DNA from: an uncultured Candidatus Saccharibacteria bacterium
Lineage (GTDB): Bacteria; Patescibacteriota; Minisyncoccia; Phycocordibacterales; UBA9973
Direction of reading: 5' to 3'
Assembly: GCA_964596395.1 (NCBI GenBank)
Contig: CAZQSY010000004.1
Location: 9,008-73,007, forward strand
Length of the DNA stretch: 64,000 bases
Below the pieces are notes generated by a model. That model had not been told where the DNA came from and did no database searches. It saw only the letters and a list, made by a program, of their open reading frames with translations. The stretch's first letter is position 1. Every line of letters starts with the position of its first letter. The position numbers were made by a program, and so were the translations under genes. Shown here one piece after another: positions 875 through 45,173 of this stretch.

Positions 875-1483
875 ATGCTTCCAGAAAAAATCATTTATAT
901 TTCTTTCTTGATAAGTTTTTTTGGGTATTTTTTCTATTTCAAGGATATATTTCGCGGCAATACTAGACCAAACATGGTTTCTTGGATTGTTTGGATGTCG
1001 GCTCCTTTCATTGGCGTGTATTTACAATTGAAAGCGGGCGCAGGACTTTCGGTGGTGCCGGTATTTTTAGCTGGATTTGGCCCGTTTCTGGTTGTTGCAA
1101 TTTCAGCCATAAGAAAAAACACTTTTTGGCATGTAACCAAGCTAGACATATGGTGCGGCATTTTTGCGCTTCTATCGCTTATATTTTACGTGCTTACCCG
1201 GAACCCGGGTCTTGCGATTATATTTGCAATAACAGGCGATGGTTTAGCGGCCGTACCCACCATAGTTAAATCTTGGAAATTCCCCGAGACAGAAAACTCA
1301 GGAGCTTATTTCCCGGGTGTAATAAACGGCATTCTAGGGTTACTAGTAATCAGAGAATGGAAGTTTGCCGTATATTCTTTCAATATATATTTGATAGTAA
1401 CTTGCTTGATTATTATCTTTTTTATTTACCGCAAGAAGATTTTTACATCACAATGTTTTACAATCTCTAATTCGCGCGAATAG
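875..1483 (+). CDS. Hypothetical polytopic membrane protein
   Basis: 202-aa ORF with multiple hydrophobic helices and no recognisable motif. Its 3' end contains the 28-mer repeat tctctaattcgcgcgaataggcgaata. Confidence 0.4.
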   Translation: MLPEKIIYISFLISFFGYFFYFKDIFRGNTRPNMVSWIVWMSAPFIGVYLQLKAGAGLSVVPVFLAGFGPFLVVAISAIRKNTFWHVTKLDIWCGIFALLSLIFYVLTRNPGLAIIFAITGDGLAAVPTIVKSWKFPETENSGAYFPGVINGILGLLVIREWKFAVYSFNIYLIVTCLIIIFFIYRKKIFTSQCFTISNSRE

Positions 1484-1538
1484 GCGAATAGTTTTTAAAC
1501 TTCGTTGAGATTTACTACAATATATCGTAGTAAATTTT

Positions 1539-2432
1539 CTAACCCAGTTTATTTTTAAACTTCCACGCCATTATTTTGTAGGCGATAAACGCCACGCCCC
1601 ATTCGGTGACAACCGAATCTTTTTGCGGAGAAACTTCCACGATGTCTGCCGCGATAACTTCTTTTTCTACCAGAAGACGCTCTATCAAGTTTAGGCCGTA
1701 ATGCCACCCGAGCCCGCCTTGTACCGGTGTTCCCGTACCCGGCATATGCGCCGGGTCAAAACCATCCACATCAATGGATAGGTAGACCTTCTTTGTGTTT
1801 ACGGCTTTTAATATTTCGCTTATCTTGTAAATTTGCGGCAATTTTTCATTCCACTCAAAAACCGTTATGGTATCTTTGTTTTTCTGCCAGTATTCATATT
1901 CGTATTTAGAGAAAGTTCTGATGCCAACCTGTACCAGATTAAAGCCGAGTTCGTGCGCCCGGCGCATGACGCAGGAATGCGCGTATTTGTTTTTGTTCTC
2001 GCTGTAATCGCTCGAGTCGTCGCGCAAGTCCTGGTGCGCGTCTATTTGTAGAATTGTCACATCTTTTGGATTTTCTTTTTTAGCTATGGCCTGAAAAGCG
2101 CCGAGCGAGATAGTATGTTCGCCGCCCAAAAGCATTACCAGCTCGTTTTTCCCAAAAACTTTCCCGTACTCAGCAGTTATTTTATCTACCGCTTTTTTTG
2201 ACGAGAGGTTGCCAAGCCCGGTGATTTCTTTATGTGCGGTTTTCAGTATTTTGGCCGGCTCGCACAAAAAGTCGCGATCGAATAGCTCTAGATTATGGTC
2301 TAGGCACTCAATAATCTTCCTTGGACCTTTGGAAGTGCCTCCCATGAAAGACACGCCGTGCTCATACGGCGCGGAAAGGATTATCGTGTCGGCCTCTTCT
2401 ATTTTTTTAGTGTTAATTATCCGGTCTATCAT
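1539..2432 (-). CDS. Arginase/agmatinase/formiminoglutamase-family ureohydrolase
   Basis: Mn-binding motifs of the ureohydrolase fold: DAHQDLRD and SIDVDGFDPAHMPGTGTPVQGGL. Confidence 0.75.
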   Translation of the reverse strand: MIDRIINTKKIEEADTIILSAPYEHGVSFMGGTSKGPRKIIECLDHNLELFDRDFLCEPAKILKTAHKEITGLGNLSSKKAVDKITAEYGKVFGKNELVMLLGGEHTISLGAFQAIAKKENPKDVTILQIDAHQDLRDDSSDYSENKNKYAHSCVMRRAHELGFNLVQVGIRTFSKYEYEYWQKNKDTITVFEWNEKLPQIYKISEILKAVNTKKVYLSIDVDGFDPAHMPGTGTPVQGGLGWHYGLNLIERLLVEKEVIAADIVEVSPQKDSVVTEWGVAFIAYKIMAWKFKNKLG

Positions 2433-2436
2433 GTTT

Positions 2437-3780: not shown

Positions 3781-3790
3781 AAAAGATTCA

Positions 3791-3834
3791 AAACACAGGG
3801 TAGTCCTGTGTATACACAGGACTACCCTGTGTTT
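3791..3834. repeat. Family-E nested palindrome, intergenic copy between AI-2E transporter gene and cysS
   Basis: aaacacagggtagtcctgtgta|tacacaggactaccctgtgttt: perfect 22-bp inverted arms, each arm itself palindromic. Confidence 0.7.
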
Positions 3835-6744: not shown

Positions 6745-7062
6745 ATGGAATTCGCGGTAATACAAACAGGCGGGAAGCAATACAGGGTATCAAAAGGGGA
6801 TTCTGTCCTCATAGAGAAACTTGCCGGCAAGCACAAAATCGGGGATGAAATCACCTTCGACAAAGTTCTGCTTCGCGATGACGGCAAAAATACCGACATT
6901 GGTACTCCTTATATCAAGGATGCAAAAGTAGGTGCGGAAATTGTACAAATTGGCCGGGCTAGGAAAATTTTGGTTGTAAAATACAAGCAGAAATCCCGCT
7001 ACCTGCGCCGCAACGGCCACCGCCAGCCTTTCTTCAAAGTGAAAATTACTTCGATAAAATAA
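6745..7062 (+). CDS. rplU: 50S ribosomal protein L21
   Basis: MEFAVIQTGGKQYRVSKGDSV... matches the L21 N-terminus. Start moved to the internal ATG at 6745. Confidence 0.85.
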   Translation: MEFAVIQTGGKQYRVSKGDSVLIEKLAGKHKIGDEITFDKVLLRDDGKNTDIGTPYIKDAKVGAEIVQIGRARKILVVKYKQKSRYLRRNGHRQPFFKVKITSIK

Positions 7063-7095
7063 CCCTGTCGCTCGCGAGAGACGGGGTTTACTGCC
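7063..7095. terminator. Bidirectional hairpin terminator between convergent rplU and recR (family D hairpin ccctgtcgctcgcgagagacgggg followed by T-run)
   Basis: Perfect stem ccctgtcgctcg/cgagagacgggg followed by ttt, immediately after the rplU stop. The same hairpin recurs inside tRNA-like pseudogenes at 26213 and 26621. Confidence 0.6.
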
Positions 7096-10269: not shown

Positions 10270-10490
10270 ATATAGCTGTGTTATTATCAATTTGTAAGCC
10301 GTTGAGCCGGATGACACCGGGGAGGTAAAGAAAGAAAGCCGAAAGGCAAGGCCTTTCGGTAAGTAGAATCTTTCGGGTATGCCCGTTACAGCTGTAGAAA
10401 AGCAAAAAGTAGGGTGGCACCGCGACACAAAAATCGCCCCTGCAAATTTATCAATTTAATGGTAAGTTTGGAGAGGCGATTTTTGTTTTC
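10270..10490 (+). promoter_or_regulatory. T-box riboswitch leader controlling aspS (T-box motif, antiterminator/terminator)
   Basis: Near-consensus T-box sequence aagtAGGGTGGCACCGCGac at 10408-10426. Intrinsic terminator aatcgcc...ggcgatttttgtttt at 10432-10489. Long-range stem I agctgt...acagct. A GAC codon at 10313-10315 is a possible Asp specifier. Confidence 0.75.
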
Positions 10491-11818: not shown

Positions 11819-12183
11819 TGAATTACATAATTAAAGGTAGGGTAATCAAGGGTGAAGGTTACGGCAAAAAGATCGGCTTTCCGACGGCCAACCTAAGCAG
11901 AAATGGAATACATACGGAGCATACGGAGGCGTTGCCTCCGTACGGAGTGTATGCGGGTTTTGTTTTCATTGGCACTAAAAATTACAGGGCGGGTATTGTG
12001 ATAGGTCCGCTGGACAGGAAGGGTTTGCCGAAAATTGAAGCGCATCTGGTTGGTTTCAAAGGAAATTTGTACGGCAAGAAAATTATTTTACATTTAAATA
12101 AATTTCTGCGAAAATTCAGGAAGTTCGAGACCGAGAGGGAACTCATTATTCAAATAAAGAAAGATTTAGAAAAATGCAAATAA
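11818..12183 (+). CDS. Riboflavin kinase (monofunctional RibF C-terminal-type domain)
   Basis: GFPTANL, GVY and EAHL..F...LYGK motifs of the flavokinase domain. Confidence 0.7.
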   Translation: MNYIIKGRVIKGEGYGKKIGFPTANLSRNGIHTEHTEALPPYGVYAGFVFIGTKNYRAGIVIGPLDRKGLPKIEAHLVGFKGNLYGKKIILHLNKFLRKFRKFETERELIIQIKKDLEKCK

Positions 12184-13800: not shown

Positions 13801-16379
13801 GATAGATAGGTGTGAATATCCCTTTTGTCTCTCTTCAGCCACAATATATTGCTTTCGAGTTTTTCTATGACTTGCTCTACGGCTCGCTCGGCGCCGGGGG
13901 CGGGATGGGTTCTGAAGAATTTCTTGAATTTGCGCAAGTGCCTTTCTTCGGCGCTTCCGGAAATCGCTTTCATAAATCTGGAGAGCGTGTGTCCGCCTTC
14001 GCCGTACCTCGTGACGAAAGTTTTCCAGTTCCGGGTGATGCATTTGAGCCATGCGTCTCGGCCGAGGGGATTCATTCCGACAGAGGATATTATTCCGGAA
14101 GTATCCTGCGGGCGCACGTGCGAAGACAGCGAAAATTGTGCGGCTTTTCTAAGGATTTCCGGGGAAGAGAAGTTGCCTAAAGCGGCGCCGATCCTGTTTC
14201 TTTCTTCATGCAGCGCTTCTTTTTTGTACATTTTTATAAGCTCTTCATATTCTTTGATTCCGCCGGATTTCGCTACGATGCCGTAAATTGGAGCGCGCAG
14301 GTCCGGGTCAACCCTTTTGCCTTTTTTAATTTTTGCAAAAAGATTTTTGGCTTTTAAAATTGTTTTTTCGTCGCCGGCTTGGCCTAATATTTCTATACAA
14401 AGGGGCCGAAGCATTGAATCAGAAGGGGGTTCGTTTTTTTTCTTACTCCACCCGAGGCGGCGAAAAACAGGGGAGAACAAGCTGATAATTAAACCATCGA
14501 GATTCGCTTCGCTTCCGGTTTTGCAAAAAATTTGCTTGATTCCCCTTATGCCCAGAGCTATCGCGTGCAGGACGGAATAATCACTCTCTCTTTTATACGC
14601 TTTTAAAAATTTCAGAGCTTCGCTCGTTCTTCCGTCGCCAGATTCGGCAAGCGCGAAGAGGTCCCTTATGATTCCCAGGCGGTCCCGCGCGGAGATTTTT
14701 TTATCCCGTACCGGCTTTGCTAATCTGTCGAGCATTTTTTTGGAATAGGCGACTCTGAAAAATCCGCTTTCGCCCGCGTTTATTTTTACAAACTCGGGCT
14801 TGGAGGCCTTGCCTCCAAGCGGAGGCAAGGCCTCCAAGCTCAACTTAGTACTCTGGCTACTAAGCAGTATTTTTGCAGTATTTTTGCCGTCTCCGAAAAC
14901 AATCGGCGTTTGCCAAATTATTTTGTCTTTGTTTTTTCTTTTGGAAATTGGGCTTGAGAAAAATCTGCCCTGCGAAAGATATAAACTTTCACCCTTTATT
15001 TCTGTCTTTATGACCGGGTACCCGGGTTTGGCAGTCCAGTTTTGCATTATTTTTTTTACCGGTTTTCCCGAGATTTTTTCAAATGCTTGCCAGAGGTGCG
15101 CGGTTTCGGTGTTTTTATAGCTATGTTTTTTCAAGTAATAGCGCAGACCGTCTCGAAAATCTTTTTCTCCCAGATATTCGGCCAGCATTCTGATAATACA
15201 GGCGCCTTTTGAATACGATACCTCGTCGAAGATTTCGCCGATTTCGTCGGGGTGATGCACTTTCACTTCTACCGGATGTGTGTTGGCCAATGAATCCAAA
15301 CGGAGTGCTACTCCTAAATCCTGCACCGAAAATTGTGTCCACATATTCCATTCAGGGAAGACCTTTTCCAGCGCCAAATATTCCATATATGAGGCGAATC
15401 CTTCGTTGAGCCACAGGTGTGTCCACCACTCCATAGTCACTAGGTTGCCGAACCACTGGTGGGCAATTTCATGTGCCACGACCAAAGCCACTCTCTGTTT
15501 GTTTGTGAGCGAGGAATTTTTTTCGTCAAAAAGCAGGGCGCTTTCGCGGTAGGTAATGGCGCCCCAGTTTTCCATGGCGCCGGCGGCAAAATCCGGGACA
15601 GCTATCATATCAAGCACGGGCAGGGGGTACTTGATATCAAAATATTTTTCGTAAAAATCCAGCATTTTGGCGGCGCAAGAAAGCGCGAACCCTGCCTGAT
15701 GCTTTTTCTCGGGATGCGTAAAGACGCGCACCGCGACCCCCCGTCTGGTTTTTGTCTGGAGCATATCAAAATCTCCCACAATGAAGGCCAGGAGGTAAGT
15801 GGACATTTTCGGCGTGGGAGAAAATCTTACAATGTCAAAGCCTGCCTCGTGCTCTTTTATTGAAACCGGCAAGGTATTAGAAATCGCCGTTTTGCCTTTT
15901 TCCACCACCAGTGATACCTTGAACACGGCTCTGTGTGCTGGTTCGTCGAAACAAGGGAAAGCCCGGCGCGCGTCGGTGGCTTCGAATTGGGTAGTGGCCA
16001 TGTGGCGTTCTTTGCCGTAAAGCATATACCGGCTGCGATAGAAGCCCCGCATTTTGTCGTTCAGTATGCCTTGAAATATCAACCGTAATTTGGCCGTGCC
16101 AGCTGGTATTTTTTTAGAAAATACAAAAGTCGCGGTTTCCCTTTTTTCGTCGTAAGAAATTTTTTCGGCGAAAAGTTTTTCTGCCAATACCGTGATGCTT
16201 GCCGTCTCAATGTCTATTTCTTTGCTGTGCAGGGTTATCTCCTTTGTCGGCTTCAAGATTTTTATTTTTATCTCCTCTTCGCCTTTGAAGGTGAAGTTCA
16301 GAAGGTCCGGATGCAATTTCAAATCGTACTCCGAGGGGATTATAGACGAGTCAAGTTTTGCGGATTTTTTTTTCTGCAT
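13785..16379 (-). CDS. pepN: Aminopeptidase N (M1 family metallopeptidase)
   Basis: HEIAHQWFGNLVT...WLNEGFA zinc-binding motif and GAMEN-like GAMENWG. Confidence 0.9.
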   Translation of the reverse strand: MQKKKSAKLDSSIIPSEYDLKLHPDLLNFTFKGEEEIKIKILKPTKEITLHSKEIDIETASITVLAEKLFAEKISYDEKRETATFVFSKKIPAGTAKLRLIFQGILNDKMRGFYRSRYMLYGKERHMATTQFEATDARRAFPCFDEPAHRAVFKVSLVVEKGKTAISNTLPVSIKEHEAGFDIVRFSPTPKMSTYLLAFIVGDFDMLQTKTRRGVAVRVFTHPEKKHQAGFALSCAAKMLDFYEKYFDIKYPLPVLDMIAVPDFAAGAMENWGAITYRESALLFDEKNSSLTNKQRVALVVAHEIAHQWFGNLVTMEWWTHLWLNEGFASYMEYLALEKVFPEWNMWTQFSVQDLGVALRLDSLANTHPVEVKVHHPDEIGEIFDEVSYSKGACIIRMLAEYLGEKDFRDGLRYYLKKHSYKNTETAHLWQAFEKISGKPVKKIMQNWTAKPGYPVIKTEIKGESLYLSQGRFFSSPISKRKNKDKIIWQTPIVFGDGKNTAKILLSSQSTKLSLEALPPLGGKASKPEFVKINAGESGFFRVAYSKKMLDRLAKPVRDKKISARDRLGIIRDLFALAESGDGRTSEALKFLKAYKRESDYSVLHAIALGIRGIKQIFCKTGSEANLDGLIISLFSPVFRRLGWSKKKNEPPSDSMLRPLCIEILGQAGDEKTILKAKNLFAKIKKGKRVDPDLRAPIYGIVAKSGGIKEYEELIKMYKKEALHEERNRIGAALGNFSSPEILRKAAQFSLSSHVRPQDTSGIISSVGMNPLGRDAWLKCITRNWKTFVTRYGEGGHTLSRFMKAISGSAEERHLRKFKKFFRTHPAPGAERAVEQVIEKLESNILWLKRDKRDIHTYLSTLVD

Positions 16380-17943: not shown

Positions 17944-18351
17944 ATGGAAACCGGATTGAACGAAAAAATTATCGAGCCCGCATGGGCTTTGTCTTCATCC
18001 TTATCTGAATGGGTGTGGAGCGTTCTTTATTTTATCATCGCTTTTTCTTTCATCTCTGTTTTTCAGAAATTTTATAAAAAGGAGTTACCCGGCAAGGTCG
18101 CCTTGCCGTTTTTGCTGAACTTGATTTTTAATTTAATACTTGTGCCTCTGCAGGTGCTTTCGAATGGAAGCATATTCGCGTCTATCGATGCGGGGCTGGT
18201 CTTGATTACCTTAGTATGGGCGACAGCGGTCGTCGCCCGGCATCTGAAGTGGGTTGCCTTGGTAAATATTCCTTACCTTTTGTGGATATGTTACGTGCTG
18301 GCGGTTGAAATAATCAAATTCATTAATTATCGAGCCATCGTCATCCAGTAA
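17944..18351 (+). CDS. Hypothetical small membrane protein (Trp-rich, 4 TM)
   Basis: Hydrophobic 135-aa ORF, well packed between neighbours. Confidence 0.4.
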   Translation: METGLNEKIIEPAWALSSSLSEWVWSVLYFIIAFSFISVFQKFYKKELPGKVALPFLLNLIFNLILVPLQVLSNGSIFASIDAGLVLITLVWATAVVARHLKWVALVNIPYLLWICYVLAVEIIKFINYRAIVIQ

Positions 18352-19106
18352 TGGAAACCGAAACATATCAAATAAAAACCCGTGATTTTGAGGGGCCGTT
18401 TCATCTCTTACTCTCGCTTATTCAGGAGAAGAAATTTTTTATCAACGACCTTTCGCTTTCACAAATAACCGAGGATTATCTCAACTACATAAAGCAAATC
18501 GGCGAGATTGATACCCGGCAGGTTTCCGGCTTTGTCGCCGTGGCGGCTACGCTGATTCTGATAAAATCCAAATCGCTACTGCCTTCGCTTAATCTTTCGG
18601 CGGAAGAGGAAGGAGACATCAAAAATCTGGAAGACCGGCTGAAGCTGTATGAATTTTATACCGAGCTCTCGGCGGGCGTGAAAAAGATTTTCGGCAAAAG
18701 AATGATTTTCGCCCCGCTTCCGCGGAAAAACGCTTTCTCTATGTTCATGCCCGACCAGAAAATTACCAGGGAAAACATGGCGAGCATAATCTTGGAGGTT
18801 TTGGGCAGGGTTCCGAAAAAAGAATTTCTTCCCGAAGTGGAGGTGAAAAAAGTCATCAGTTTAGAGGAAATGATTTCGAAGCTTTCAGAAAGAATAGAAA
18901 AAAGTTTGGAATTTAATTTCAAAGATTTTGCCTGCCTGCCGGCAGGCAGGCCGGGTCAATCCATAACGAAAGAAGAAAAGGTGGTTGTAATTATCAGTTT
19001 TCTTGCTATGCTAGAACTCGTGAGACAAGGTTTGCTTCACGTTACCCAGAGTGAGAATTTCGAAGATATCATTATTCAAAAACAACAAAATGGAACTCCA
19101 GCATAA
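18351..19106 (+). CDS. scpA: Segregation and condensation protein A
   Basis: FEGPFHLLLSLIQ N-terminus typical of ScpA. Carries an in-frame copy of the 20-bp palindrome CCTGCCTGCCGGCAGGCAGG at 18931-18950. Confidence 0.8.
   Translation: METETYQIKTRDFEGPFHLLLSLIQEKKFFINDLSLSQITEDYLNYIKQIGEIDTRQVSGFVAVAATLILIKSKSLLPSLNLSAEEEGDIKNLEDRLKLYEFYTELSAGVKKIFGKRMIFAPLPRKNAFSMFMPDQKITRENMASIILEVLGRVPKKEFLPEVEVKKVISLEEMISKLSERIEKSLEFNFKDFACLPAGRPGQSITKEEKVVVIISFLAMLELVRQGLLHVTQSENFEDIIIQKQQNGTPA
18931..18950. repeat. Family-C 20-bp perfect palindrome CCTGCCTGCCGGCAGGCAGG (copy inside scpA, in frame)
   Basis: Identical 20-mer at 22291-22310. Close variants at 44726-44743 and 34514-34534. Confidence 0.7.
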
Positions 19107-19695: not shown

Positions 19696-20593
19696 CTACC
19701 TTCTGTTCTTTGTGTTCGCGGTGATTCTCTTTGAGAGCGTGTTTTTTTTGCACGGGAATCGCAAATGGGAAGCGGTATTTCTGGCCGAAGAAAAAAATAA
19801 GGAAGTCATACAAAGCGCCCTAGACGACGCGCGTTTGGAAGCGAAGGCGGTTTCGGTTTATGATTTTACTTCCAAAGAAAAAATTTATGGCAGAAACGAC
19901 GATGTAGCTATGCCCATAGCTTCACTCGTCAAGACGATGCTTGTCGCTGTGGCTGTAAACGCTATTGGTGGAGAAAGTTCGATCTCGATTTCCCAGGCCG
20001 CAATTTTAGAGCAGGGGGATTACGGTTTTTTCGTGGGCGAAAAGTTCGCGGTTCGAGACTTGGCTCGGCTGACTCTAGTAGGGTCATCTAACGACGGCTC
20101 TTACGCCTTGGCGGAAAACACTTCGGGTATTTTGGAAAAAATGAACAAAAAGGCGCAGAAAATCGGAATGACCCGCGCGATGTTTTCGAATTATACCGGC
20201 CTAGACGTATCGGATGGCCTAAGTTTTGCCCCGAGTTCGCTGGCTTCAGCCGAAGATGTGAACCAAATGTCTTATTACGCCTCGCGGGGAAATTCGGAAA
20301 TTTTTTCCGCTACTGTCTTGCCCGAAATTACCGTTGTTTCCGAATCCGGCTACGCGCATACCATTAAAAACACCAACATTATCCTTGGTAAAATCCCGGG
20401 AATTATTTTTTCTAAAACCGGCTACACCCCGCTGGCGGGCGGTAATCTTTCGATAATTTATAAGAATCAGTACGGGCGCGAAATTGCCGTTGCCGTCCTC
20501 GGCTCAACTTTTGACGGCAGATTTAAAGACGTAGAAAACATAGTCAATTTATTGTACAATTTGGACTATGGAAGCTCAAACCGGCGAAATTAG
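19673..20593 (+). CDS. D-alanyl-D-alanine carboxypeptidase (serine-type, PBP5-like)
   Basis: SxxK active site (ASLVKTM), SxN (SSND) and KTG (KTGYT) motifs. Signal/TM N-terminus. Start at MEPKQRP. Confidence 0.75.
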   Translation: MEPKQRPNYLLFFVFAVILFESVFFLHGNRKWEAVFLAEEKNKEVIQSALDDARLEAKAVSVYDFTSKEKIYGRNDDVAMPIASLVKTMLVAVAVNAIGGESSISISQAAILEQGDYGFFVGEKFAVRDLARLTLVGSSNDGSYALAENTSGILEKMNKKAQKIGMTRAMFSNYTGLDVSDGLSFAPSSLASAEDVNQMSYYASRGNSEIFSATVLPEITVVSESGYAHTIKNTNIILGKIPGIIFSKTGYTPLAGGNLSIIYKNQYGREIAVAVLGSTFDGRFKDVENIVNLLYNLDYGSSNRRN

Positions 20594-22280
20594 AACTTGT
20601 CAGAATTGCAGACATAACTTCGCAATTGAGCCGGAAGATTTTAATTTCTATGAAAAAATAAAAGTTCCTCCGCCGACGTTTTGCCCGGAGTGCCGACTTA
20701 TCCGGAGAATGATTTGGCGCAATGAACGCTCACTTTACAAACGTGCTTGCGATTTGTGCGGCAAAAAAATTATTTCTATGTATGAGGAAGGTGTGCCGTT
20801 TCCGGTATATTGCCCGGAGTGTTGGAAGGGTGACGCCCGGGACCCTTTTCAATACGGAACAGAGTATGATTTTAATAAACCGTTTTTCAAGCAATGGCAT
20901 GAGCTTTTTTTACGGGTGCCAAGGCAATCCACCTGGCAGACGAATGATTGTATTAACACCGAATACGCGAACTTCGTGCAGGAAGCAAAAAATATTTACC
21001 TGGCGTATTCGGTGATTTACGGTTCAGAGGACGTTTACTATTCAAATAATATAGACGGTTCCAAGAAAATAGTGGACGCCTTAAACGCCAAAGAAAGCGA
21101 GTTGGTTTACGAAGGAATTGGGAGCGTGAAAAATTACAACTGCCGGTATGCCTACTGGTCTTCTAATTGCCTGGATTGCGATTTTGTTTTTGATTGCGTG
21201 AATTGCAGTAATTGTTTTAGCTGTGTAAATTTGCGCAATAAGAAATACCACATCTGGAACCGGGAATACTCTAGAGAGGAATATTTTGAGAGATTGAAAG
21301 AATTAAACACGGGAAGTTATAAGTCGGTGCAGGAAAATCTGGAAAAATTCTGGAAATTTTATCTTCAATTTCCCAGAAAATACGCTAAATCAACAAATAG
21401 CGTAAACTCTACCGGGGACGAAATCCGCGAATGCAAGAACGCGCATTTCGTGTTTAGCTCTTACGAATCGGAAGATGTCAAGTTCATATATCGTTCCCTT
21501 AAAATCAAAGACGCAATGGATGCCTGCCATCTGGGCAAAAATTCTGAAATGGTTTACGAGCATGGTTTTGGAGGGTCAGACCATAGCACTAATGTAAAAT
21601 TTGTTCTAGCCGGAGCGCCGGCTGTATCAGACGTGGAGTATATAGATTATTGCCAATCTTCAAGTCACTTATTCGGCTGTATCGGCCTTCGCTCTAAAAA
21701 GTACTGCATATTAAACAAACAGTATAAAAAAGAAGAATATCTTTCATTGACGGAAAAAATAAAAGACCACATGATGAAGATGCCGTACATAGATACCAGC
21801 GGGATAACATACAGATACGGAGAACTTTTTCCTTACGAGTTTTCGCCGTTTGGCTACAACGAAACCATGGCTAGCGCCTTGGTTCCGCTTTCTAAAGAAG
21901 AGGTTCTAAAGAGGGGATATAGATGGAAAGAAAAGGCGGAAAATAAATATGAAATCACAAAAAAAGCGGATGATTTGCCGGACGATATAAAAGATGCGGA
22001 CGATACCATTCTAAATGAAGTGGTAGAATGTGCCGCGACTAAGAGACCTTTTCGAATAACCAAATTTGAGATTGATTTCTATCGGCGAATGAATATTCCT
22101 TTGCCAAGATTGCATCAAGACGAAAGGTATAGGCGTCGGATGGCATTATGTAACCCCCTCAAGCTATGGCATAGGAAATGCATGAAGGAAGGTTGTACCA
22201 ATGAATTCGAGACCTCTTACGCCCCTGAGAGGCCGGAGATTGTTTATTGTGAGAGGTGTTATCAGGGGGAGGTTTATTGA
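20568..22280 (+). CDS. Cys-rich hypothetical protein with multiple zinc-ribbon-like CxxC pairs and internal repeats
   Basis: 570 aa. N-terminal CQNC...CPEC...CDLC...CPEC, central CxxCxxC clusters, repeated KKY.I.N.EY..EEY blocks, and a C-terminal CERC. No family recognised. Confidence 0.5.
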   Translation: MEAQTGEIRTCQNCRHNFAIEPEDFNFYEKIKVPPPTFCPECRLIRRMIWRNERSLYKRACDLCGKKIISMYEEGVPFPVYCPECWKGDARDPFQYGTEYDFNKPFFKQWHELFLRVPRQSTWQTNDCINTEYANFVQEAKNIYLAYSVIYGSEDVYYSNNIDGSKKIVDALNAKESELVYEGIGSVKNYNCRYAYWSSNCLDCDFVFDCVNCSNCFSCVNLRNKKYHIWNREYSREEYFERLKELNTGSYKSVQENLEKFWKFYLQFPRKYAKSTNSVNSTGDEIRECKNAHFVFSSYESEDVKFIYRSLKIKDAMDACHLGKNSEMVYEHGFGGSDHSTNVKFVLAGAPAVSDVEYIDYCQSSSHLFGCIGLRSKKYCILNKQYKKEEYLSLTEKIKDHMMKMPYIDTSGITYRYGELFPYEFSPFGYNETMASALVPLSKEEVLKRGYRWKEKAENKYEITKKADDLPDDIKDADDTILNEVVECAATKRPFRITKFEIDFYRRMNIPLPRLHQDERYRRRMALCNPLKLWHRKCMKEGCTNEFETSYAPERPEIVYCERCYQGEVY

Positions 22281-22330
22281 TTCTCTAATTCCTGCCTGCC
22301 GGCAGGCAGGCGCGCGAATAGGCGAATAAG
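22281..22330. repeat. 28-mer repeat tctctaattc|gcgcgaataggcgaata interrupted by a family-C palindrome insertion
   Basis: The uninterrupted copy at 1463-1492 reads tctctaattcgcgcgaataggcgaata. Here the same sequence carries ctgcctgccggcaggcagg inserted after tctctaattc. Confidence 0.65.
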
Positions 22331-22371: not shown

Positions 22372-23139
22372 ATGAAAATGATCGTTCAAAATTTGGCCAC
22401 GGAATACGAAGATGAGGGGGAGGGAAAAACCTTGCTTTTTTTGCACGGATGGCAAAGCAATCTGCACACTTTCGACCCCTTAGTGAATTCCTTGAGGGAT
22501 TCACTAGAGAAAACGCACAGGTTCGTGCGCCTTGATTTGCCGGGTTTTGGCGGGAGCGAAAGGCCGAGGGAGGATTGGGACTTGGACAAATATGTCTATT
22601 TCGTTTCTGATTTTGTAAAAAAAATGAATCTAGATGTATACGCGCTAGTCGGGCACTCGATGGGCGGACGGATAATTATAAAAGGCGTTTCGGAAAATAT
22701 TTTGAAAACCGAGAAAATAGTGCTAATTTCTTCAGCCGGCATCGCCAAGAGGAAAACTTTCCGCAACCGTTTATTAAAGTTTCTGGCGAAAACCGGCCGG
22801 ATGGTCACGTGCATTCCGCCGTTTTATTTCTGGCGGGAGGGATTGCGCCGAAAAATGTACCAAAAAATCGGAAGTCGAGATTACCTTTCTGCCGGCGCCA
22901 TGCGGGGGACTTTCGTTCGGGTAATAAACGAAGATCTTTCTATAAACGCCCAAAAAGTTAATTCTCCGGCGCTGCTTGTCTGGGGCGAGAATGACACAGA
23001 AACGCCCCTTTCTGATGGAATGCGGCTCTCAAAAATGATTGCCGGTTCGGAGCTTAATGTTTTAAAAGGTTGCGGACATTTCGTGCATGAAGAAAAAGCA
23101 CAAGAGGTGGGAGATATCGTGGAAAAATTCTTATGTTAA
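22372..23139 (+). CDS. Alpha/beta hydrolase fold protein
   Basis: LLFLHGWQSN and nucleophile elbow GHSMGG. -10 TATAAT upstream at ~22353. Confidence 0.75.
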   Translation: MKMIVQNLATEYEDEGEGKTLLFLHGWQSNLHTFDPLVNSLRDSLEKTHRFVRLDLPGFGGSERPREDWDLDKYVYFVSDFVKKMNLDVYALVGHSMGGRIIIKGVSENILKTEKIVLISSAGIAKRKTFRNRLLKFLAKTGRMVTCIPPFYFWREGLRRKMYQKIGSRDYLSAGAMRGTFVRVINEDLSINAQKVNSPALLVWGENDTETPLSDGMRLSKMIAGSELNVLKGCGHFVHEEKAQEVGDIVEKFLC

Positions 23140-24623
23140 AAAATATATTCAACAGATTTATTTCTAAATACAGCTTGCGTTATCCTAGGTCGATAGCGTA
23201 TATGCTGCAGGCGAGCGAATACAAACCGGTTCCGTATCTCAAATGGTGGTTGAGGGTAGAAGATTTTTGCCGGGTGGAAAAAAGAAAGAGTTTGGTAAAA
23301 ACCCAAAATGCGAAAATCTTCCTTTCGTTTTCCTGGCTGATTTACCTCGCTTCGTATGCCGCCATTCTGGGCGTTTTGGTTTTTGCAAATTTCGATTATA
23401 AATACGCCGCCGTGGCGGCCATGGCGCTTCTGGCTCCTTATATTCTAGCTTTCGGAGTTTTGCTTTTGGTTTTTGCCATGAAAATTTTTTATCTGCCCAA
23501 AATGCATTTTTTGATTAAAAAAAGAACTGCGGAGCTTGAAAAACACAAGGGCTTGAAAATCGGCATTGCCGGGAGCTTCGGCAAAACGACTATGCGCGAA
23601 ATATTGAAGACCGTGCTTTCCGCCGGTAAAAAAGTCGCTTCGCCGGAGAAAAATTATAATACGCTGACGGGTATCAGCAATTTCATTAAGACGTTAAAAG
23701 GAGACGAAGAAATTTTAATCTTTGAACTTGGCGAATATTACAAAGGGGACATAAGAGAGATGTGCGAATTTGTGCATCCGCAAATCGGGATAATCACCGG
23801 AGTAAATGAAGCGCACTTGGAGAAATTCAAGAATCTGGATACAACCGCGAGCACGATTTTTGAACTAGCTGATTGGCTTGAGGAAAATAAAAAAAACACA
23901 GGGGAACCCTGTGAAAATTTTACACAGGGTTCCCCTGTGTTGTACATAAACGGCGAAAACGAACCGGCAAAAAGTCGCGCCCAGTCGAAGGATTTTGTCT
24001 ATTCAAGGAGCGGCTTGGATGGTTTGCGGGTTTCGAGCGCACATGCTGGGCTCGAAGGCACCAGTTTTACTCTGGAGTATGAGGGTAAAAATTTTGAGTT
24101 TAATTCAGGACTCCTCGGCTTGCACCAAGTCGGCCCGCTTTGCGCGGCGGTGCATCTGGGTCTATGTCTAGGAATAAAGATAAGTGACCTGCAAAAAGGA
24201 GTGGCCGAAACGAAACCATTCGAGCATCGGTTAGAGCCAAAGACCCTCGCCGGCGGAGTAACGATGCTGGATGACAGCTATAACGGCAACCCTGACGGGG
24301 TTAAGGTGGTGATAGAATTTTTGGCTTCGCTTAAAAGCCGCCGCCGGTTTTACGTTACTCCCGGATTGGTAGAAATGGGACCGAGGACCGAAGAAGTGCA
24401 TAAAGAAATCGGCAGGGAACTCGCGCGAAGCGGAATAGAAAAAATTGTTTTGGTAAAAAACTCGGTTACGCCTTATATTGAAGCAGGTCTGAAAGAAGAG
24501 AATTTCGCGGGCGAAGTGATATGGTTTGAAGACAGCTTAAAAATGCTTTCGGCCTTGCCTCATTTGACCGTTTCGGGTGATATAGTATTATTGCAGAATG
24601 ACTGGCCCGACCAATACTACTAA
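23133..24623 (+). CDS. murF: Mur ligase family protein, likely UDP-MurNAc-tripeptide--D-Ala-D-Ala ligase, with unusual N-terminal TM extension
   Basis: Mur ligase P-loop GIAGSFGKTT, central and C-terminal domains, and the gene sits next to ddl. ~130-aa N-terminal segment with 2-3 TM helices. In-frame family-E palindrome at 23895-23941. Confidence 0.7.
   Translation: MLKNIFNRFISKYSLRYPRSIAYMLQASEYKPVPYLKWWLRVEDFCRVEKRKSLVKTQNAKIFLSFSWLIYLASYAAILGVLVFANFDYKYAAVAAMALLAPYILAFGVLLLVFAMKIFYLPKMHFLIKKRTAELEKHKGLKIGIAGSFGKTTMREILKTVLSAGKKVASPEKNYNTLTGISNFIKTLKGDEEILIFELGEYYKGDIREMCEFVHPQIGIITGVNEAHLEKFKNLDTTASTIFELADWLEENKKNTGEPCENFTQGSPVLYINGENEPAKSRAQSKDFVYSRSGLDGLRVSSAHAGLEGTSFTLEYEGKNFEFNSGLLGLHQVGPLCAAVHLGLCLGIKISDLQKGVAETKPFEHRLEPKTLAGGVTMLDDSYNGNPDGVKVVIEFLASLKSRRRFYVTPGLVEMGPRTEEVHKEIGRELARSGIEKIVLVKNSVTPYIEAGLKEENFAGEVIWFEDSLKMLSALPHLTVSGDIVLLQNDWPDQYY
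23895..23941. repeat. Family-E nested palindrome (aacacaggggaaccctgtg-aaaatttt-acacagggttcccctgtgtt) in frame inside murF
   Basis: Nearly perfect ~23-bp inverted arms. A sibling copy (arms acacagggtagtcctgtg) is intergenic at 3791-3834. Here it encodes NTGEPCENFTQGSPVL. Confidence 0.7.
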
Positions 24624-25994: not shown

Positions 25995-26177
25995 CCTGTT
26001 TCTTTTGCCTCTTTTTTGTGCTATATATAAAGCGCAGCCGAGACCGGTTGCGGGTTCTTTTAGTTCGGAATTTCTTTGCTTAAGTGGAAATTCCGTCAGG
26101 CGCGATTTCTTTTTCGTTTTTGCGCCTGTATGTTTCCGCCCGCGTTTTGATACCGGTTTAAAGTGTGGGCGGAGCAT

Positions 26178-26276
26178 GGGCCTATTGTTCTGTGGTAGAA
26201 TAGCGGTCTCCACCCCGTCGCTCGCGAGCGACAGGGTCCAAGACCGTTGCCGGAAGTTCGATTCCTCCACGGCCCA
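26178..26276 (+). pseudogene. Degenerate tRNA-Trp-like sequence with a 24-nt hairpin inserted in the anticodon loop, directly abutting the GIY-YIG ORF start
   Basis: D-arm gttc/tgtggta/gaat, anticodon stem gcggt + loop ctcca(hairpin ccccgtcgctcgcgagcgacaggg)..accgt, T-arm ggaag-TTCGATT-cctcc. Acceptor pairs only 5/7. Ends 2 nt before the ATG at 26279. Confidence 0.5.
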
Positions 26277-26278
26277 CA

Positions 26279-26538
26279 TGTTTTATGTTTACGTTTTGAA
26301 GAGTAAGAAAGACAATAAGCTGTATTTCGGGTATACTGCTGACCTGAAAAAACGTTTATCTGAACACAAGAGAGGGAACGTAGAAAATACTAGCCATAGA
26401 TTGCCCGTTGAGCTTGTTTATTACGAATCTTATAGAAATATAGATGATGCGAAGGAGCGGGAAAAGAGTTTCAAAAATAGCGGTTCTGTGTATAATGGAT
26501 TGGTAAAAAGAATTAAGAGAAGTATGATGGGAGCTTAG
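26279..26538 (+). CDS. Small GIY-YIG nuclease (COG2827/UPF0213-type URI-domain protein)
   Basis: MFYVYVLKS...KLYFGYTADLKKRLSEHKRG matches the GIY-YIG core. Paralogous to 44802..45059. The TAG stop lies inside the 5' end of tRNA-Trp. Confidence 0.75.
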
Positions 26539-26602
26539 TTAAGTGGTATAACTGCGGTCTCCAAAACCGCGGTCAAGGGTCCGATTCCCTTAGCTCCCGC
26601 CA
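26529..26602 (+). tRNA. tRNA-Trp (anticodon CCA), CCA encoded
   Basis: Acceptor gggagct/agctccc, D-arm gtta-agtggta-taac, anticodon stem gcggt/accgc with loop cTCCAaa, T-arm aaggg/ccctt, discriminator g then cca. Overlaps the last 10 nt of the GIY-YIG ORF. Confidence 0.8.
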
Positions 26603-26690
26603 GAGACATTTAGGTCTCCACCCCGTCGTTCGCGAACGACGGGGTCCAAAACCGCGGTCAAGGGTCCGATTCCCTCATCGCCCGCTAGAT
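26603..26690 (+). pseudogene. Partial duplicate of the tRNA-Trp 3' portion carrying the same anticodon-loop hairpin
   Basis: aggtctcca + hairpin ccccgtcgttcgcgaacgacgggg + tccaaaaccgcggtcaagggtccgattccct... matches the tRNA-Trp 3' half with altered acceptor. No 5' half present. Confidence 0.5.
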
Positions 26691-32913: not shown

Positions 32914-35205
32914 TTACTCAGTTTTTTTTAATTTATGCGGGTTATGGTTAGCGCACATTTTATTACTGCACCGCTCAGGTATGGTCTTTGTGCCGAGCAT
33001 CATTAAGCTTCCGCACATGTCGCAGATCCTGCCGGTGGGTTTGGCTTTTATCGCGAATTTGCAGTCGGGGTAATTTGAGCAGGAATAAAAAATCCCGAAA
33101 CGCCCACGGCGCTCGGTGAGTTCGCCTTTCTTACACTCTGGGCAAGCCACACCTGTTTTCTTTCTGGCCTCCTCGGCTTCATCTTTTTTAATAAACTTAC
33201 ATTTCGGATAGCGCGAGCAGGAGATAAAGGTGCCCGAGCCGTCGCGTCTTTCTTTGATTACCAGTTTGCCACCTCCATTTTTACCCTCCTTGTCTCCGCA
33301 TTCAGGGCATTTTTCGCCCGTTTCTTCCGGGCCCTTTAATTCTGTGCCGTCGAACTTCAGCGCTCCATCGCATTCGGGATATTTCGAGCAGGAATAAAAT
33401 TTCCCTCCGCGAGAGAGTTTGATTATCATCGAACTGCCGCATTTTGGGCATTTTATATTCTCCGGCGCGTCGCCCAAGTTGGTCGCTTTTTCGAGTTTTT
33501 CTTTCGATTTTATTTCTTTTAAGAACGGCCCGTAAAAATCTTTGAGCGTCTTTTCGTACTCGCGCTCGCCCCGCGAGATTTCGTCGAGTTCATCTTCCAT
33601 TTCGGCGGTGAAATTATCCGAGATGTACTTCATAAAATGTTTTTCCAAAAAGTCCGAGACAACTTCACCGGTGTCGGTGGGGAAGAGGGTGCGGTTTTCC
33701 TTGCGCACGTACTCGCGGTCTTCCAGGGTCTTCATGATTGAGGCGTAAGTAGAAGGCCGGCCGATGCCGCGCGCTTCAAGTTCTTTCACCAGGCCGGCTT
33801 CGCTGTATCTTCCCGGCGGTTCGGTGAATTTTTCTTCGCTAGATAACTCAAGCATTTTTAAATTTTCGTTTTCTTTTACTTCGGGCAGAACAACATCTTC
33901 GTTCCCGTTCGCGCTGTCAACCTTGAGCCAGCCGTCAAAAAGTATCCGCGAGCCGATAGCGGTGAAGTCGGGAAACTCAAACTTGGAAGTTGAATTTCCA
34001 CTTGGAAGTCCGACTTCCAAGTTGCTTACATTCGCGCTGATTTTTGTTTTCAGAACCTTGGCGTCGGCCATCTGCGAAGCTACCGCGCGCTCCCATATTA
34101 ACCTGTACAATCGTCTTTGCTCTTCGGTGCCCGCTTCCGCGTTTTCGACGTGGGTAGGGCGAATAGCCTCATGCGCTTCCTGCGCGTTTTTTGATTTAGT
34201 TTTGTACATACGCGGCTCGGCGTAATTTTTTCCGTATTTTTTTTCTACGAGCGCTAGAATTTGCGCTTGAGCCGCGGCGCCCAGGTTCGTGCTGTCGGTA
34301 CGCATATAAGTGATATGCCCGGCCTCGTAGAGTTTCTGCGCGAGTTGCATAGTGCGGGAAGGCGAGTATCCCAAGCGCGAGCTCGCGGTCTGCTGCAGGG
34401 TAGAGGTGGTAAAGGGCGCGCGCGGAGAGCGCTTTTGCTCGGATTCTTTGACTTCAACGATTTTCCAGTTCTCTTTTCTGCCCGTTTCCAGTATTTTTTC
34501 TACCAGTTTTTCGCCTGCCTGTCCGGTAGGCAGGTCACGCGGTTCGTCTTTGCAGGTCAGGGCCAGCTTGTCTCCCTTGCTTGTTTCAAAGACGCCGAAA
34601 ATTTTCCAGTATCTTTCGGGAACGAAAGCGCGGATTTCCCGCTCGCGTTCCATAATAATGCGAAGCGCCGGCGACTGCACTCTGCCAGCAGAGAGCCCAT
34701 AGCGCACTTTTTTCCAGATAAGGCCGGACAAATCATATCCCACCAGTCGGTCGAGCACCCTACGGGCTTCCTGGGCTCTGCGCAAGGCGGTATCTATCTC
34801 TCTCGGGTTTTTGAGGGCTTCTTCTACCGCCTCGGCGGTTATTTCGTGAAAAGTGGCGCGCTTTATCGGCGCTTTTATTTTTTTATCGCCATTTAAAATT
34901 TCTTTGATATGCCAGGCGATGGCCTCGCCCTCCCGGTCGGGGTCGGTAGCCAGAATTACCTCGTCTGCTTTTTCGGCCAAACCTTCGAGTTCGCGCACAA
35001 CTTTTTCTTTGCCTTTGGATATTTCGTAATGCGGAACAAAGCCCCCTTCGATGTCTATGGCTTTCTTGTTTGATTTTGGTAAATCGCGAATATGGCCGAT
35101 AGACGCGCGTACAACATAAGGATCCAGGTCCGCCCCTGAATTGGCGGACAGGTATTTTTCAATCGTCTTTGCTTTCGATGGTGATTCAACAATAAGTAAT
35201 CGCAT
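32914..35205 (-). CDS. topA: DNA topoisomerase I with C-terminal C4 zinc-ribbon repeats
   Basis: Toprim N-terminus, active-site Tyr region, topo IA core, and four C-terminal CxxC...CxxC zinc ribbons. Confidence 0.9.
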   Translation of the reverse strand: MRLLIVESPSKAKTIEKYLSANSGADLDPYVVRASIGHIRDLPKSNKKAIDIEGGFVPHYEISKGKEKVVRELEGLAEKADEVILATDPDREGEAIAWHIKEILNGDKKIKAPIKRATFHEITAEAVEEALKNPREIDTALRRAQEARRVLDRLVGYDLSGLIWKKVRYGLSAGRVQSPALRIIMEREREIRAFVPERYWKIFGVFETSKGDKLALTCKDEPRDLPTGQAGEKLVEKILETGRKENWKIVEVKESEQKRSPRAPFTTSTLQQTASSRLGYSPSRTMQLAQKLYEAGHITYMRTDSTNLGAAAQAQILALVEKKYGKNYAEPRMYKTKSKNAQEAHEAIRPTHVENAEAGTEEQRRLYRLIWERAVASQMADAKVLKTKISANVSNLEVGLPSGNSTSKFEFPDFTAIGSRILFDGWLKVDSANGNEDVVLPEVKENENLKMLELSSEEKFTEPPGRYSEAGLVKELEARGIGRPSTYASIMKTLEDREYVRKENRTLFPTDTGEVVSDFLEKHFMKYISDNFTAEMEDELDEISRGEREYEKTLKDFYGPFLKEIKSKEKLEKATNLGDAPENIKCPKCGSSMIIKLSRGGKFYSCSKYPECDGALKFDGTELKGPEETGEKCPECGDKEGKNGGGKLVIKERRDGSGTFISCSRYPKCKFIKKDEAEEARKKTGVACPECKKGELTERRGRFGIFYSCSNYPDCKFAIKAKPTGRICDMCGSLMMLGTKTIPERCSNKMCANHNPHKLKKTE

Positions 35206-42679: not shown

Positions 42680-42758
42680 GCGGCAGCATGCTTTTGCTCG
42701 GGTCCTCGGGTCGCCCTGCTGGGCTCAACCAGACCAGCTCGCAAAAGTATGCTGCCGC
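42680..42758. repeat. Family-B palindromic element (18-bp terminal inverted repeats gcggcagcatgcttttgc / gcaaaagtatgctgccgc), intergenic copy
   Basis: Fills most of the tsaCE-tsaD spacer. A second copy at 42995-43091 shares both termini and inner blocks tcgggtcctcgggtcg and ctcaaccagaccagctcg. Confidence 0.75.
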
Positions 42759-44715: not shown

Positions 44716-44790
44716 TGGGAGATCGCCTGCCTGCGCAGGCAGGTCTAACGGTAGTCACCTCATCGGCGACCCGCCGAAAAGGCGGGGACA
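44716..44790 (+). pseudogene. tRNA 5' fragment (acceptor 5' strand + D-arm) interrupted by a family-C palindrome and followed by a 36-nt double-hairpin element
   Basis: tgggagatcg[cctgcctgcgcaggcagg]tctaacggtag parallels the tRNA-Gln start tgggagatcgtctaatggtag. It is followed by tcacctcatcggcgacccgccgaaaaggcggggaca, which is repeated at 45178-45213. Confidence 0.5.
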
Positions 44791-45075: not shown

Positions 45076-45146
45076 TGGGAGATCGTCTAATGGTAGGACT
45101 CCTCCCTTTGAAGGAGGCTATCTTGGTTCGAATCCAAGTCTCCCAG
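45076..45146 (+). tRNA. tRNA-Gln (anticodon TTG) embedded in a 14-bp perfect extension of the acceptor helix
   Basis: Acceptor tgggaga/tctccca, D-arm gtct-aatggta-ggac, anticodon stem cctcc/ggagg with loop cTTTGaa, T-arm cttgg-TTCGAAT-ccaag. Flanks ttcgcgagcagtgc (45062-75) and gcactgctcgcgaa (45146-59) are exact reverse complements. Confidence 0.8.
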
Positions 45147-45173
45147 CACTGCTCGCGAATTAAAAATTTTTAA

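Follow-up and report, generated by a model that had tools for sequence, protein, structure and literature searches.

A perfect palindrome of 18-21 nt that probably behaves as a non-autonomous insertion element in Patescibacteria and other bacteria

A 64-kb stretch (44% GC) of contig CAZQSY010000004.1 from an uncultured Candidatus Saccharibacteria bacterium contains several copies of a GC-rich palindrome, referred to here as P. The whole of this stretch is called the window. The 20-nt form of the palindrome (P20, or simply P) is CCTGCCTGCCGGCAGGCAGG and an 18-nt form without the central CG (P18) is CCTGCCTGCGCAGGCAGG. The P family probably behaves as a non-autonomous insertion element and would then rank among the smallest mobile elements described. 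Aligned empty and filled sites show that a copy of P is added precisely, with no target bases lost and usually with no target duplication. P enters intergenic micro-repeats, orphan tRNA fragments and loops of housekeeping proteins, the last predicted to be at the protein surface. The same alignments show some positions hit more than once.

Palindrome P and its empty counterparts

Members of the P family are perfect palindromes of 18-21 nt with the arms CCTGCCTGC/GCAGGCAGG and a centre of 0-3 nt. The sequence can be written as (CCTG)2CC-GG(CAGG)2. The hairpin formed by single-stranded P20 has a stem of 8 bp and a loop of 4 nt (-8 kcal/mol). None of its six reading frames contains a stop codon. 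The exact 20-mer is present twice in the window (18931 and 22291) and the looser arm pattern CCTGCCT...AGGCAGG four times (18931-18950, 22291-22310, 34514-34534 with 21 nt and 44726-44743 with 18 nt), with none expected from shuffles in either case. The initial annotation of this DNA had proposed that a 20-bp palindrome acts as a mobile micro-element with an empty and a filled site. An empty counterpart was found for each of the four sites, which supports that proposal, and by alignment all four copies are insertions relative to these counterparts. The exact 20-mer is as described, and the family was found to include 18-, 19- and 21-nt forms as well. A frequent concatemer of restriction or methylation sites without insertion polymorphism, which would have refuted the proposal, was excluded as insertion polymorphism is present. 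Copies in coding sequence are in-frame versions, being 18 or 21 nt long, or 20 nt with a nearby compensating base.

The clearest comparison was obtained with topA. A variant of the palindrome had been placed at 34514-34534 and was confirmed, with LPTGQAG encoded on the minus strand. LPTGQAG is the only run of seven consecutive residues of the window TopA in alignment columns where 80% or more of 120 orthologues have a gap. These orthologues were 76-83% identical and about 95% of them (approximately 114 of 120) lack the seven codons. The insertion is not visible in a comparison with E. coli TopA and close orthologues are needed. An insert at this position was found in six of the 120 TopA proteins (five orthologues and the window protein), which form three groups each nested among empty relatives. 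The nearest relatives of the window TopA are 83% identical and all empty. The second group is protein P0148, with an empty nearest relative at 93.8% identity, and the third comprises P0133, P0134, P0138 and P0234, with the nearest empty relative at 92.5%. The empty topA of locus L279 reads CGC GAC|GAA AAG. The filled topA of L278, with 93.8% protein identity to L279, reads AGA GA[CCTGCCTGCGCAGGCAGG]C GAA, an exact P18 without duplication. Locus L280 has a decayed 18-mer at the same nucleotide, and the window insert is a 21-mer that corresponds to P20 with one substitution and one extra A. At a single nucleotide of an essential gene, the TopA inserts thus keep the reading frame in three different ways and are hard to derive from one frameshifting event. 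They point to a hot spot that was hit independently from a pool of P variants, of which only in-frame lengths would survive in coding sequence.

The copy in scpA had been described as in frame and encoding ACLPAGRPG. Translation and orthologue alignment bore this out (A-CLPAGRP-G). Most of 120 ScpA orthologues lack the seven codons and align as FKDFA-------G, where the window protein has FKDFACLPAGRPG. Empty alleles read TTC GCC GGG GTG GCC AAG ACG. Filled alleles carry P20 after TTTG and one extra base approximately 10 nt downstream, which restores the reading frame. The filled alleles have Pro-Ile/Met in common because the original GCC AAG is read out of frame. Other orthologues carry the same seven residues or decayed versions of them (CLPAGRQ, CLPTGRL, HLPSDKL and shorter remnants), and these can be arranged as a putative decay series from CLPAGRP to HLPSDKL to shorter forms. 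Old copies of P decay where they stand, and fresh copies at other sites retain the canonical sequence. Three filled scpA alleles share the compensating base and the position is patchy in a neighbour-joining tree, which is weak at approximately 240 columns. ScpA was not counted as evidence of recurrence because the filled alleles share one compensating base.

The third site lies in a dispersed repeat. The 27-mer TCTCTAATTCGCGCGAATAGGCGAATA, made up of TCTCTAATT (9 nt) and CGCGCGAATAGGCGAATA (18 nt), is contiguous at 1464-1490. At 22282-22328 the two parts are separated by exactly P20, with no base lost, no target duplication and a one-base ambiguity in placement. The gapped pattern had no matches in 100 shuffles. 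The empty and filled pair first noted is therefore real, but as a 27-mer at 1464-1490 and not as a 28-mer at 1463-1492. A coincidental short match was excluded by the number of copies, as the 27-mer is a dispersed element. Metagenome contigs were scanned for it with 0-24 nt allowed at the split and at least 120 loci (L158-L277) were obtained. The loci listed contain 139 matches, giving at least 129 non-redundant exact copies in groundwater metagenomes, with unrelated flanks. Three of the 139 are interrupted, namely the window copy, L256 and L276, and the window copy is the only one that carries P. In L256 (minus strand) the ATT|CGCG position that holds P20 in the window is occupied by another GC-rich hairpin-like 19-mer, CCCTCCAGAGGCGGGCAGG, and this suggests a shared landing site for several hairpin families. 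A partial duplication of 15 nt interrupts the 27-mer of L276. Upstream of the filled 27-mer is a gene that ends ...YCERCYQGEVY*, and its orthologues end ...YCE.CYQ.EVY*. Orthologues of this gene in L171, L196 and L259 are each followed by an intact 27-mer. The two 27-mers of the window are two members of another dispersed micro-element family and not one duplicated locus. The pair had been called direct evidence of insertion. Insertion now holds more strongly than before, but the pair alone is weaker than the orthologous comparisons because its members are separate copies of a dispersed family. The copy at 1464-1490 shares with ORF (open reading frame) 875-1483 no more than the final codons and the TAG stop. 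This ORF has no Pfam match, and the label of membrane-protein gene given to it earlier is putative.

The 27-mer itself is usually located at gene ends, in the spacer between a stop codon and the next start. In 22 of the 129 copies the upstream ORF stops at the TAA or TAG of the 27-mer, and the following start codon is often just 5-10 nt downstream. Thirteen copies lie upstream of a small ArsR-like winged-helix gene with Pfam matches just under the curated cut-offs. A 12-nt palindrome, ATTCGCGCGAAT, and two GCGAATAG units are contained in the 27-mer. No Rfam family matched the 27-mer or the orphan tRNA site described below, and the 27-mer string had no match in the searchable literature. The 27-mer may be an operator or another micro mobile element.

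The fourth site is the disrupted tRNA fragment in which a variant palindrome had been seen at 44726-44743. This was confirmed as P18 splitting a 21-nt copy of the 5' end of tRNA-Gln. The orphan halves TGGGAGATCG|TCTAACGGTAG differ by one base from the intact gene at 45076-45096. The intact tRNA-Gln is 330 nt downstream of the orphan fragment and does not contain the palindrome. A GIY-YIG ORF lies between the two. The same layout recurs in unrelated genomes and on a viral contig (Table 1), with a P-split orphan 5' tRNA copy of 16-45 nt followed by a GIY-YIG ORF or a short spacer and then by an intact tRNA. In the other loci with a matching intact tRNA the insert is exactly 20 nt; L032 is the exception, with a base change at the junction as well. 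Five other pairs of a tRNA fragment and an intact tRNA had clean 20-nt insertions, as did a tandem pair in L006. Of 126 P copies, 16 have a tRNA no more than 400 nt away. The link between GIY-YIG ORFs and P is real but confined to the tRNA context. From its arrangement the tRNA/GIY-YIG cassette looks like a free-standing homing-endonuclease gene that integrated with duplication of the tRNA 5' end.

In every cassette of this kind seen with an orphan 5' tRNA copy, that copy is split by P. P was also observed in more complete tRNAs. An apparently complete initiator-like tRNA-Met on a viral contig (L147, 2284) has P20 in its variable-loop region (GCGGGATGGAGCAGCGGCAGCTCGCGTGGCTCATACCCACGAGG[P]TCGCCGGTTCGAATCCGGCTCCCGCGA), and a second viral locus (L124, 8616) has the same P-carrying tRNA-Met with a deletion. 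In L087 a near-complete tRNA(TCT) has P in the D-loop.

Table 1. Coordinates of P-family copies and associated features in the window, and further loci with a P-split orphan tRNA
Feature	Location	Strand	Remarks
Intact (empty) 27-mer TCTCTAATTCGCGCGAATAGGCGAATA	1464..1490	+	Internal TAG 1481-1483 is the stop of ORF 875-1483
P20 in scpA (ORF 18351-19106)	18931..18950	+	Net insertion of 7 codons, CLPAGRP, at 18933-18953
Filled 27-mer (9 nt + P20 + 18 nt)	22282..22328	+	2 nt past the TGA (22278-22280) of ORF 20568-22280
P20 inserted in 27-mer copy	22291..22310		Exact 20-nt insertion between TCTCTAATT and CGCGCG, no target duplication
21-nt P variant in topA (ORF 32914-35205)	34513..34533	-	Encodes LPTGQAG, residues 225-231
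Orphan copy of tRNA-Gln nucleotides 1-21	44716..44754	+	Split by P18 after nucleotide 9 or 10
P18 CCTGCCTGCGCAGGCAGG	44726..44743		18-nt form inside orphan tRNA-Gln copy
GIY-YIG nuclease ORF, 85 aa	44802..45059	+	Pfam GIY-YIG E = 3.3e-18; weak match to group I intron endonuclease
Intact tRNA-Gln (UUG)	45076..45147	+	ARAGORN and Rfam; empty counterpart of orphan fragment
P-split orphan tRNA layout	L002 (2581-2760)		tRNA-Ile
P-split orphan tRNA layout	L017		Fragment differs from downstream tRNA-Met
P-split orphan tRNA layout	L032		tRNA-Val
P-split orphan tRNA layout	L039		tRNA-Lys
P-split orphan tRNA layout	L108		tRNA-Gly
P-split orphan tRNA layout	L120		tRNA-Leu
P-split orphan tRNA layout	L154		Viral contig

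Occurrence of P and its landing sites

Exact P20 was found at 120 or more loci (at least 120) in a collection with one genome per species. Among the matches listed, records came from Parcubacteria, Wolfebacteria, Saccharibacteria, WWE3, Uhrbacteria, Daviesbacteria, Doudnabacteria and Peregrinibacteria, from Omnitrophota, Planctomycetes, Bdellovibrionales, Thermodesulfovibrio, Chloroflexi and uncultured Gamma- and Deltaproteobacteria, and from Bacteroidota including cultured Winogradskyella, Flagellimonas, Longitalea and Flavivirga. Two of the cultured carriers are Winogradskyella echinorum KCTC 22026 and Flagellimonas yonaguniensis. No cyanobacterial records were among the matches listed. P20 was present in 35 viral loci and P18 in 25, while two control palindromes with the same half-site composition as P had no viral matches. 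The 27-mer loci, 613 kb of Patescibacteria-rich sequence fetched without regard to P, served as an unbiased sample. They contained seven P-family members, or approximately 1 per 90 kb, with P18 found three times and no (CCTG)n length variants. At most 44 of 170 P copies are in long ORFs, a figure that is an upper bound, and the convincing coding copies are mostly in the LPAGRQ frame.

Reconstructed empty sites were enriched for TC|CG, GA|CG, TT|CG and RA|TK junctions, the tetramers TC|CG, GA|CG and RA|TK being 5-8 fold enriched. No longer target motif was found, and orientation-optimised weight matrices were informative just at positions -1 and +1. The tRNA sites, at junction 9/10 and in the D-loop, anticodon loop and variable loop, had raised the idea that P targets single-stranded loops. 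This was rejected as a general rule when 166 reconstructed empty sites were folded, with 32.5% in hairpin loops compared to 31.5%.

Repeats of at least 7 nt, direct or inverted, were three times commoner in the flanks of P than in controls. Direct repeats of this length flank 17.5% of P copies compared to 4-6% in controls. Those abutting both sides of P show a sharp peak at a length of exactly 7 nt, with 13 cases that have one mismatch or none (0.5 expected), and one further abutting repeat is 14 nt long. Approximately 10% of P copies lie between 7-nt direct repeats. P is inside tandem heptamer arrays in L084, L103, L123 and L144 and between a single pair of heptamers in L047, L082 and L141. 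The arrays could be targets, or a minority of 7-bp staggered cuts could leave array-building footprints. A shared mechanism of heptamer arrays and P is a possibility.

Arrays of 7-nt units, or one identical pair of them, also surround P in L125, L131, L146 and others, with units that include TCTAAAA, AATTACG, GTGAGAG and TTCGTAT. In L052 two paralogous 23S_rRNA_IVP genes (four-helix-bundle, Avd-like; Pfam E = 1.9e-29) occupy 2368-3797, and P lies 18 nt upstream of the second, inside a GAGTGAT-type repeat array. ORFs related to 23S_rRNA_IVP are near P in L127 and L149. CCGCC-N3-4-GGCGG hairpins, similar to the 19-mer of L256, adjoin P in the window (44768-44785) and in L002, L013, L018, L057 and L088.

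The window encodes housekeeping genes of a Patescibacteria genome of Nomurabacteria/Paceibacterota-like type, among them DnaJ, CysS, DnaB, TrpS/TyrS, PepN, ScpA/B, MurF, Ddl, ParB, RelA/SpoT, TopA, DprA, SerS and TsaD. The only selfish-looking genes are two GIY-YIG ORFs of approximately 85 aa. The second of these (26278-26538) overlaps the start of tRNA-Trp (26529-26602). In the surrounding region (26150-26680) a degenerate full-length tRNA(CCA)-like sequence is present upstream and a 3' partial tRNA-Trp copy (about 26612-26675) downstream. Both copies carry a palindrome, Q, of approximately 25-28 nt, ACCCCGTCG[C/T]TCGCGA[G/A]CGACGGGGT, in the anticodon loop beside a repeated CCA. A third copy of Q is at 7061-7088. 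The Q consensus had no viral matches.

Further palindromes were visible in the window. REPIN-like doublets at 3791-3834 and 23895-23941 consist of two inverted hairpins of approximately 20 nt, ACACAGGG-N4/5-CCCTGTGT. The first is a perfect 44-nt palindrome between cysS and an AI-2E transporter gene. The second is inside a MurF-like ORF (23133-24623; residues 255-270, NTGEPCENFTQGSPVL) at a position where E. coli MurF is gapped. GC-rich hairpins of the type GGAGGC-NNN-GCCTCC or similar are present in coding sequence at 14787-14850, 11911-11953, 10339-10359 and 18090-18108. Aminopeptidase N includes a nested 64-nt palindrome (residues 510-531) and a riboflavin kinase ORF a 43-nt hairpin that has a tandem repeat of 9 nt (residues 32-46). 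This genome seems to accept in-frame copies of several palindrome families. Near the start of the TsaD gene, on either side, there are two copies of a 16-nt tandem, CTCGGGTCCTCGGGTC (42697-42712 and 43012-43027, 315 nt apart).

Proposed agent of movement and competing explanations

P would have to be copied in trans, as it encodes nothing and no gene travels with it. The most likely agent, named tentatively and by analogy, would be an enzyme that recognises the hairpin or cruciform of P and pastes it without staggered cuts. This would follow the single-strand logic of REP/RAYT (repetitive extragenic palindromes and their transposases) and IS200/IS605 systems, a logic that fits a palindrome which leaves no target duplication and nests in other small repeats. 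An unlikely alternative agent would be templated repair of nuclease-made breaks, with small GIY-YIG nucleases as the candidate.

Several observations weigh against an insertion element of this kind. The defining tag and transposase of REP/RAYT or IS200/IS605 were not found. Transposase, integrase, HUH and reverse-transcriptase domains were absent from every ORF of the window, and no mobilising gene was found among these ORFs or recurring near P. When all ORFs within 1 kb of P were clustered (approximately 1.3 Mb of P loci) there was no recurrent gene family beyond small groups. No transposition intermediate and no presence/absence polymorphism within a population were observed. Predicted single-strand loops or structure were not enriched at the 166 empty sites, and the targeting of tRNA loops is therefore not general. 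The density of P in the 613-kb sample (about 1 per 90 kb) is low, unlike that of classical REPs. The filled ScpA alleles may represent one event spread by recombination and not repeated hits. The letter-perfect identity of 20 nt across phyla is a further difficulty.

P could instead be a repair scar that marks cleavage and not transposition. A nuclease, possibly a small GIY-YIG enzyme, would break preferred sites such as tRNA genes, and short synthesis templated by another P would heal the break. In the window, L039, L108, L120 and the viral locus L154, P is in an orphan tRNA of 16-45 nt that immediately precedes a GIY-YIG ORF. P-fetched loci contain six GIY-YIG ORFs, three of which lie no more than 105 nt from P. 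The two GIY-YIG genes are the only nuclease-type selfish genes of the window, and the junctions are ambiguous by 1-2 nt and favour |CG and A|T. However, just 3 of the 126 P copies in genome loci have a GIY-YIG ORF nearby, no family is consistently near P, and GIY-YIG cassettes without P exist (for example L165, L170, L237 and L277). GIY-YIG enzymes also hydrolyse DNA and do not join it, and the present data show no cleavage. We consider such a scar unlikely. A broader proposal is also unlikely, in which P (18-21 nt) would be a pan-bacterial, virus-carried hairpin micro-transposon with preferred sites (|CG, A|T, tRNA genes and micro-repeats). It would be moved in trans by a widespread small structure-specific nuclease, the candidate being the GIY-YIG protein of approximately 85 aa, and 7-bp staggered cuts with excision would generate the heptamer arrays.

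It is improbable that P is a relic of a few ancient insertions, with the patchiness in ScpA and TopA due to allele exchange by homologous recombination among Patescibacteria or to repeated precise loss. The filled ScpA alleles of three lineages do share the +1 compensating base and Pro-Ile/Met, and a large part of the weak ScpA tree has decayed versions. The TopA inserts, on the other hand, differ in form at one nucleotide (exact P18, 21 nt and a decayed 18 nt) and have empty nearest relatives at 92-94%. A frameshifting 20-mer in an essential gene could not last to be resolved in three ways. Canonical and decayed copies coexist, and allele exchange cannot explain the same sequence in unrelated phyla and viral contigs. 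Local convergent origin, by tetranucleotide slippage, quasi-palindrome correction or snap-back synthesis at GCCGG-like seeds and with no transfer of sequence, would fit the (CCTG)2CC-GG(CAGG)2 form, the ScpA empty site GCC|GGG that resembles the centre of P, and the copies nested in P-like sequence in L020, L030 and L044. It was judged very improbable. The unbiased 613-kb sample has no length variants with n=1 or n=3, the flanks mostly bear no relation to P (as in TTTTTTA[P]TAAAAAA and the tRNA D-loops), 20 nt are identical across phyla, and P had 35 viral matches compared to 0 for the two palindromes of the same composition.

Least credible of all is a conserved functional site that was never inserted, such as a terminator hairpin, operator or restriction/methylation cluster, or an artefact of sequencing or assembly. 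P does form a stable hairpin and contains GCCGGC/CCGG. Against this, it interrupts the coding sequences of ScpA and TopA at points where most orthologues are empty, and copies decay once inserted. A conserved site kept by selection was refuted by the orthologous empty sites. An intrinsic terminator was also rejected, as the terminator scan did not call P, no T-run follows it on either strand and copies are in coding sequence. An artefact does not account for the presence of P in independent assemblies and in cultured isolates, nor for its point differences.

Relation to known elements and significance

By analogy, P most resembles the small dispersed repeats (SDRs) of cyanobacteria, REPs and Rickettsia palindromic elements (RPEs). 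SDR4, SDR5 and SDR6, reportedly described by Elhai and colleagues in 2008 (Elhai et al. 2008), are said to be approximately 20-27 nt long, dispersed, non-coding and absent from orthologous sites, to insert into other small repeats and palindromes, and to be associated with tandem heptamer arrays. P is likewise about 20 nt, if slightly shorter, non-coding, dispersed and absent at orthologous sites (TopA, ScpA and the 27-mer), and it is found inside the 27-mer, inside P-like copies and between 7-nt direct repeats. One article (PMC5861425) presents SDRs of the Nostocaceae as very small mobile repeats restricted to that family, with HIP1 as the insertion site of SDR5. In contrast to SDRs, reported only in Nostocaceae, P occurs in many phyla and on viral contigs. 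It is a perfect palindrome of another sequence and is found in frame in essential genes and in orphan tRNAs beside GIY-YIG ORFs. P should be treated as an analogue of SDRs and not as a member.

RPEs (Ogata et al. 2000) are reportedly restricted to Rickettsia, approximately 100-150 bp long, and found in frame in protein genes, where the added peptide is tolerated at the surface of the protein, and also in RNA genes. The in-frame insertion of a palindrome into conserved protein genes is shared by P in ScpA and TopA, but P has 18-21 nt and adds 6-7 residues, and differs from RPEs in size and taxon. The GC clusters of yeast mitochondria and the double-hairpin elements of fungal mitochondria are organellar units of approximately 30-50 nt, typically with short target duplications. 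They vary from strain to strain, and some lie in frame within a gene (var1). P is also a short GC-rich palindromic unit in a genome of lower GC content. Miniature inverted-repeat transposable elements have insertion sequence terminal inverted repeats and a target-site duplication and are usually longer than 50 bp, whereas P is 18-21 nt long and its insertions with known empty sites lack duplication.

REPs and REPINs are moved by RAYT transposases (Bertels & Rainey 2011, PMC3116915; Di Nocera et al. 2013, PMC3733652). REPs have a conserved unpaired GTAG or CGTC tag at one end and are occasionally found in coding sequences, sometimes at the same site in related species (PMC3733652). Like P, they are non-autonomous stem-loop palindromes of approximately 20-40 nt, thought to move as single-strand hairpins without target duplication. 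P differs in being a perfect palindrome, where REPs are usually imperfect, and in lacking the GTAG/CGTC tag, its flanks being weakly biased at -1 and +1 only. P copies are single and sparse compared to the often inverted doublets and high copy number of the mostly extragenic REPs, and cross-phylum where REP families are lineage-specific. REPs often flank the gene of their cognate RAYT, an HUH Y1 transposase. No RAYT/HUH gene was found in the 64-kb window and none was a recurrent neighbour in the P loci. IS200/IS605 elements are described in PMC6006769 as recognising hairpins and inserting without target duplication. The analogy with them is mechanistic only, as subterminal hairpins, guide/target tetranucleotides and tnpA were not found here.

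No prior description of P was found in the searchable literature, either by its string or through related topics. The insertion behaviour of P is well supported. P stands apart from SDRs, REPs and RPEs as a perfect palindrome of 18-21 nt that crosses phyla and occurs in viral contigs, recurs at the same site in essential genes and is found in orphan tRNAs.

The usual view is that mobile DNA requires genes of its own or, failing that, recognisable ends of 100 bp or more. A precisely added 20-nt sequence raises the question of which enzyme recognises and copies it. This question is sharpened by the same nucleotide of an essential gene being hit in separate lineages and by the letter-perfect occurrence of the sequence across phyla and on viral contigs. 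The inserts break tRNA and gene callers, and in marker genes, TopA and ScpA among them, they are recurrent indels that look like common descent. Some of the numerous small insertions in Patescibacteria proteins may be due to them. Through the 7-nt signal, P is tied to the heptamer arrays of several phyla. If the micro-transposon proposal were true, no smaller mobile element with hosts in different phyla would be known, and P would be the source of recurrent 6-7 residue insertions in essential proteins.

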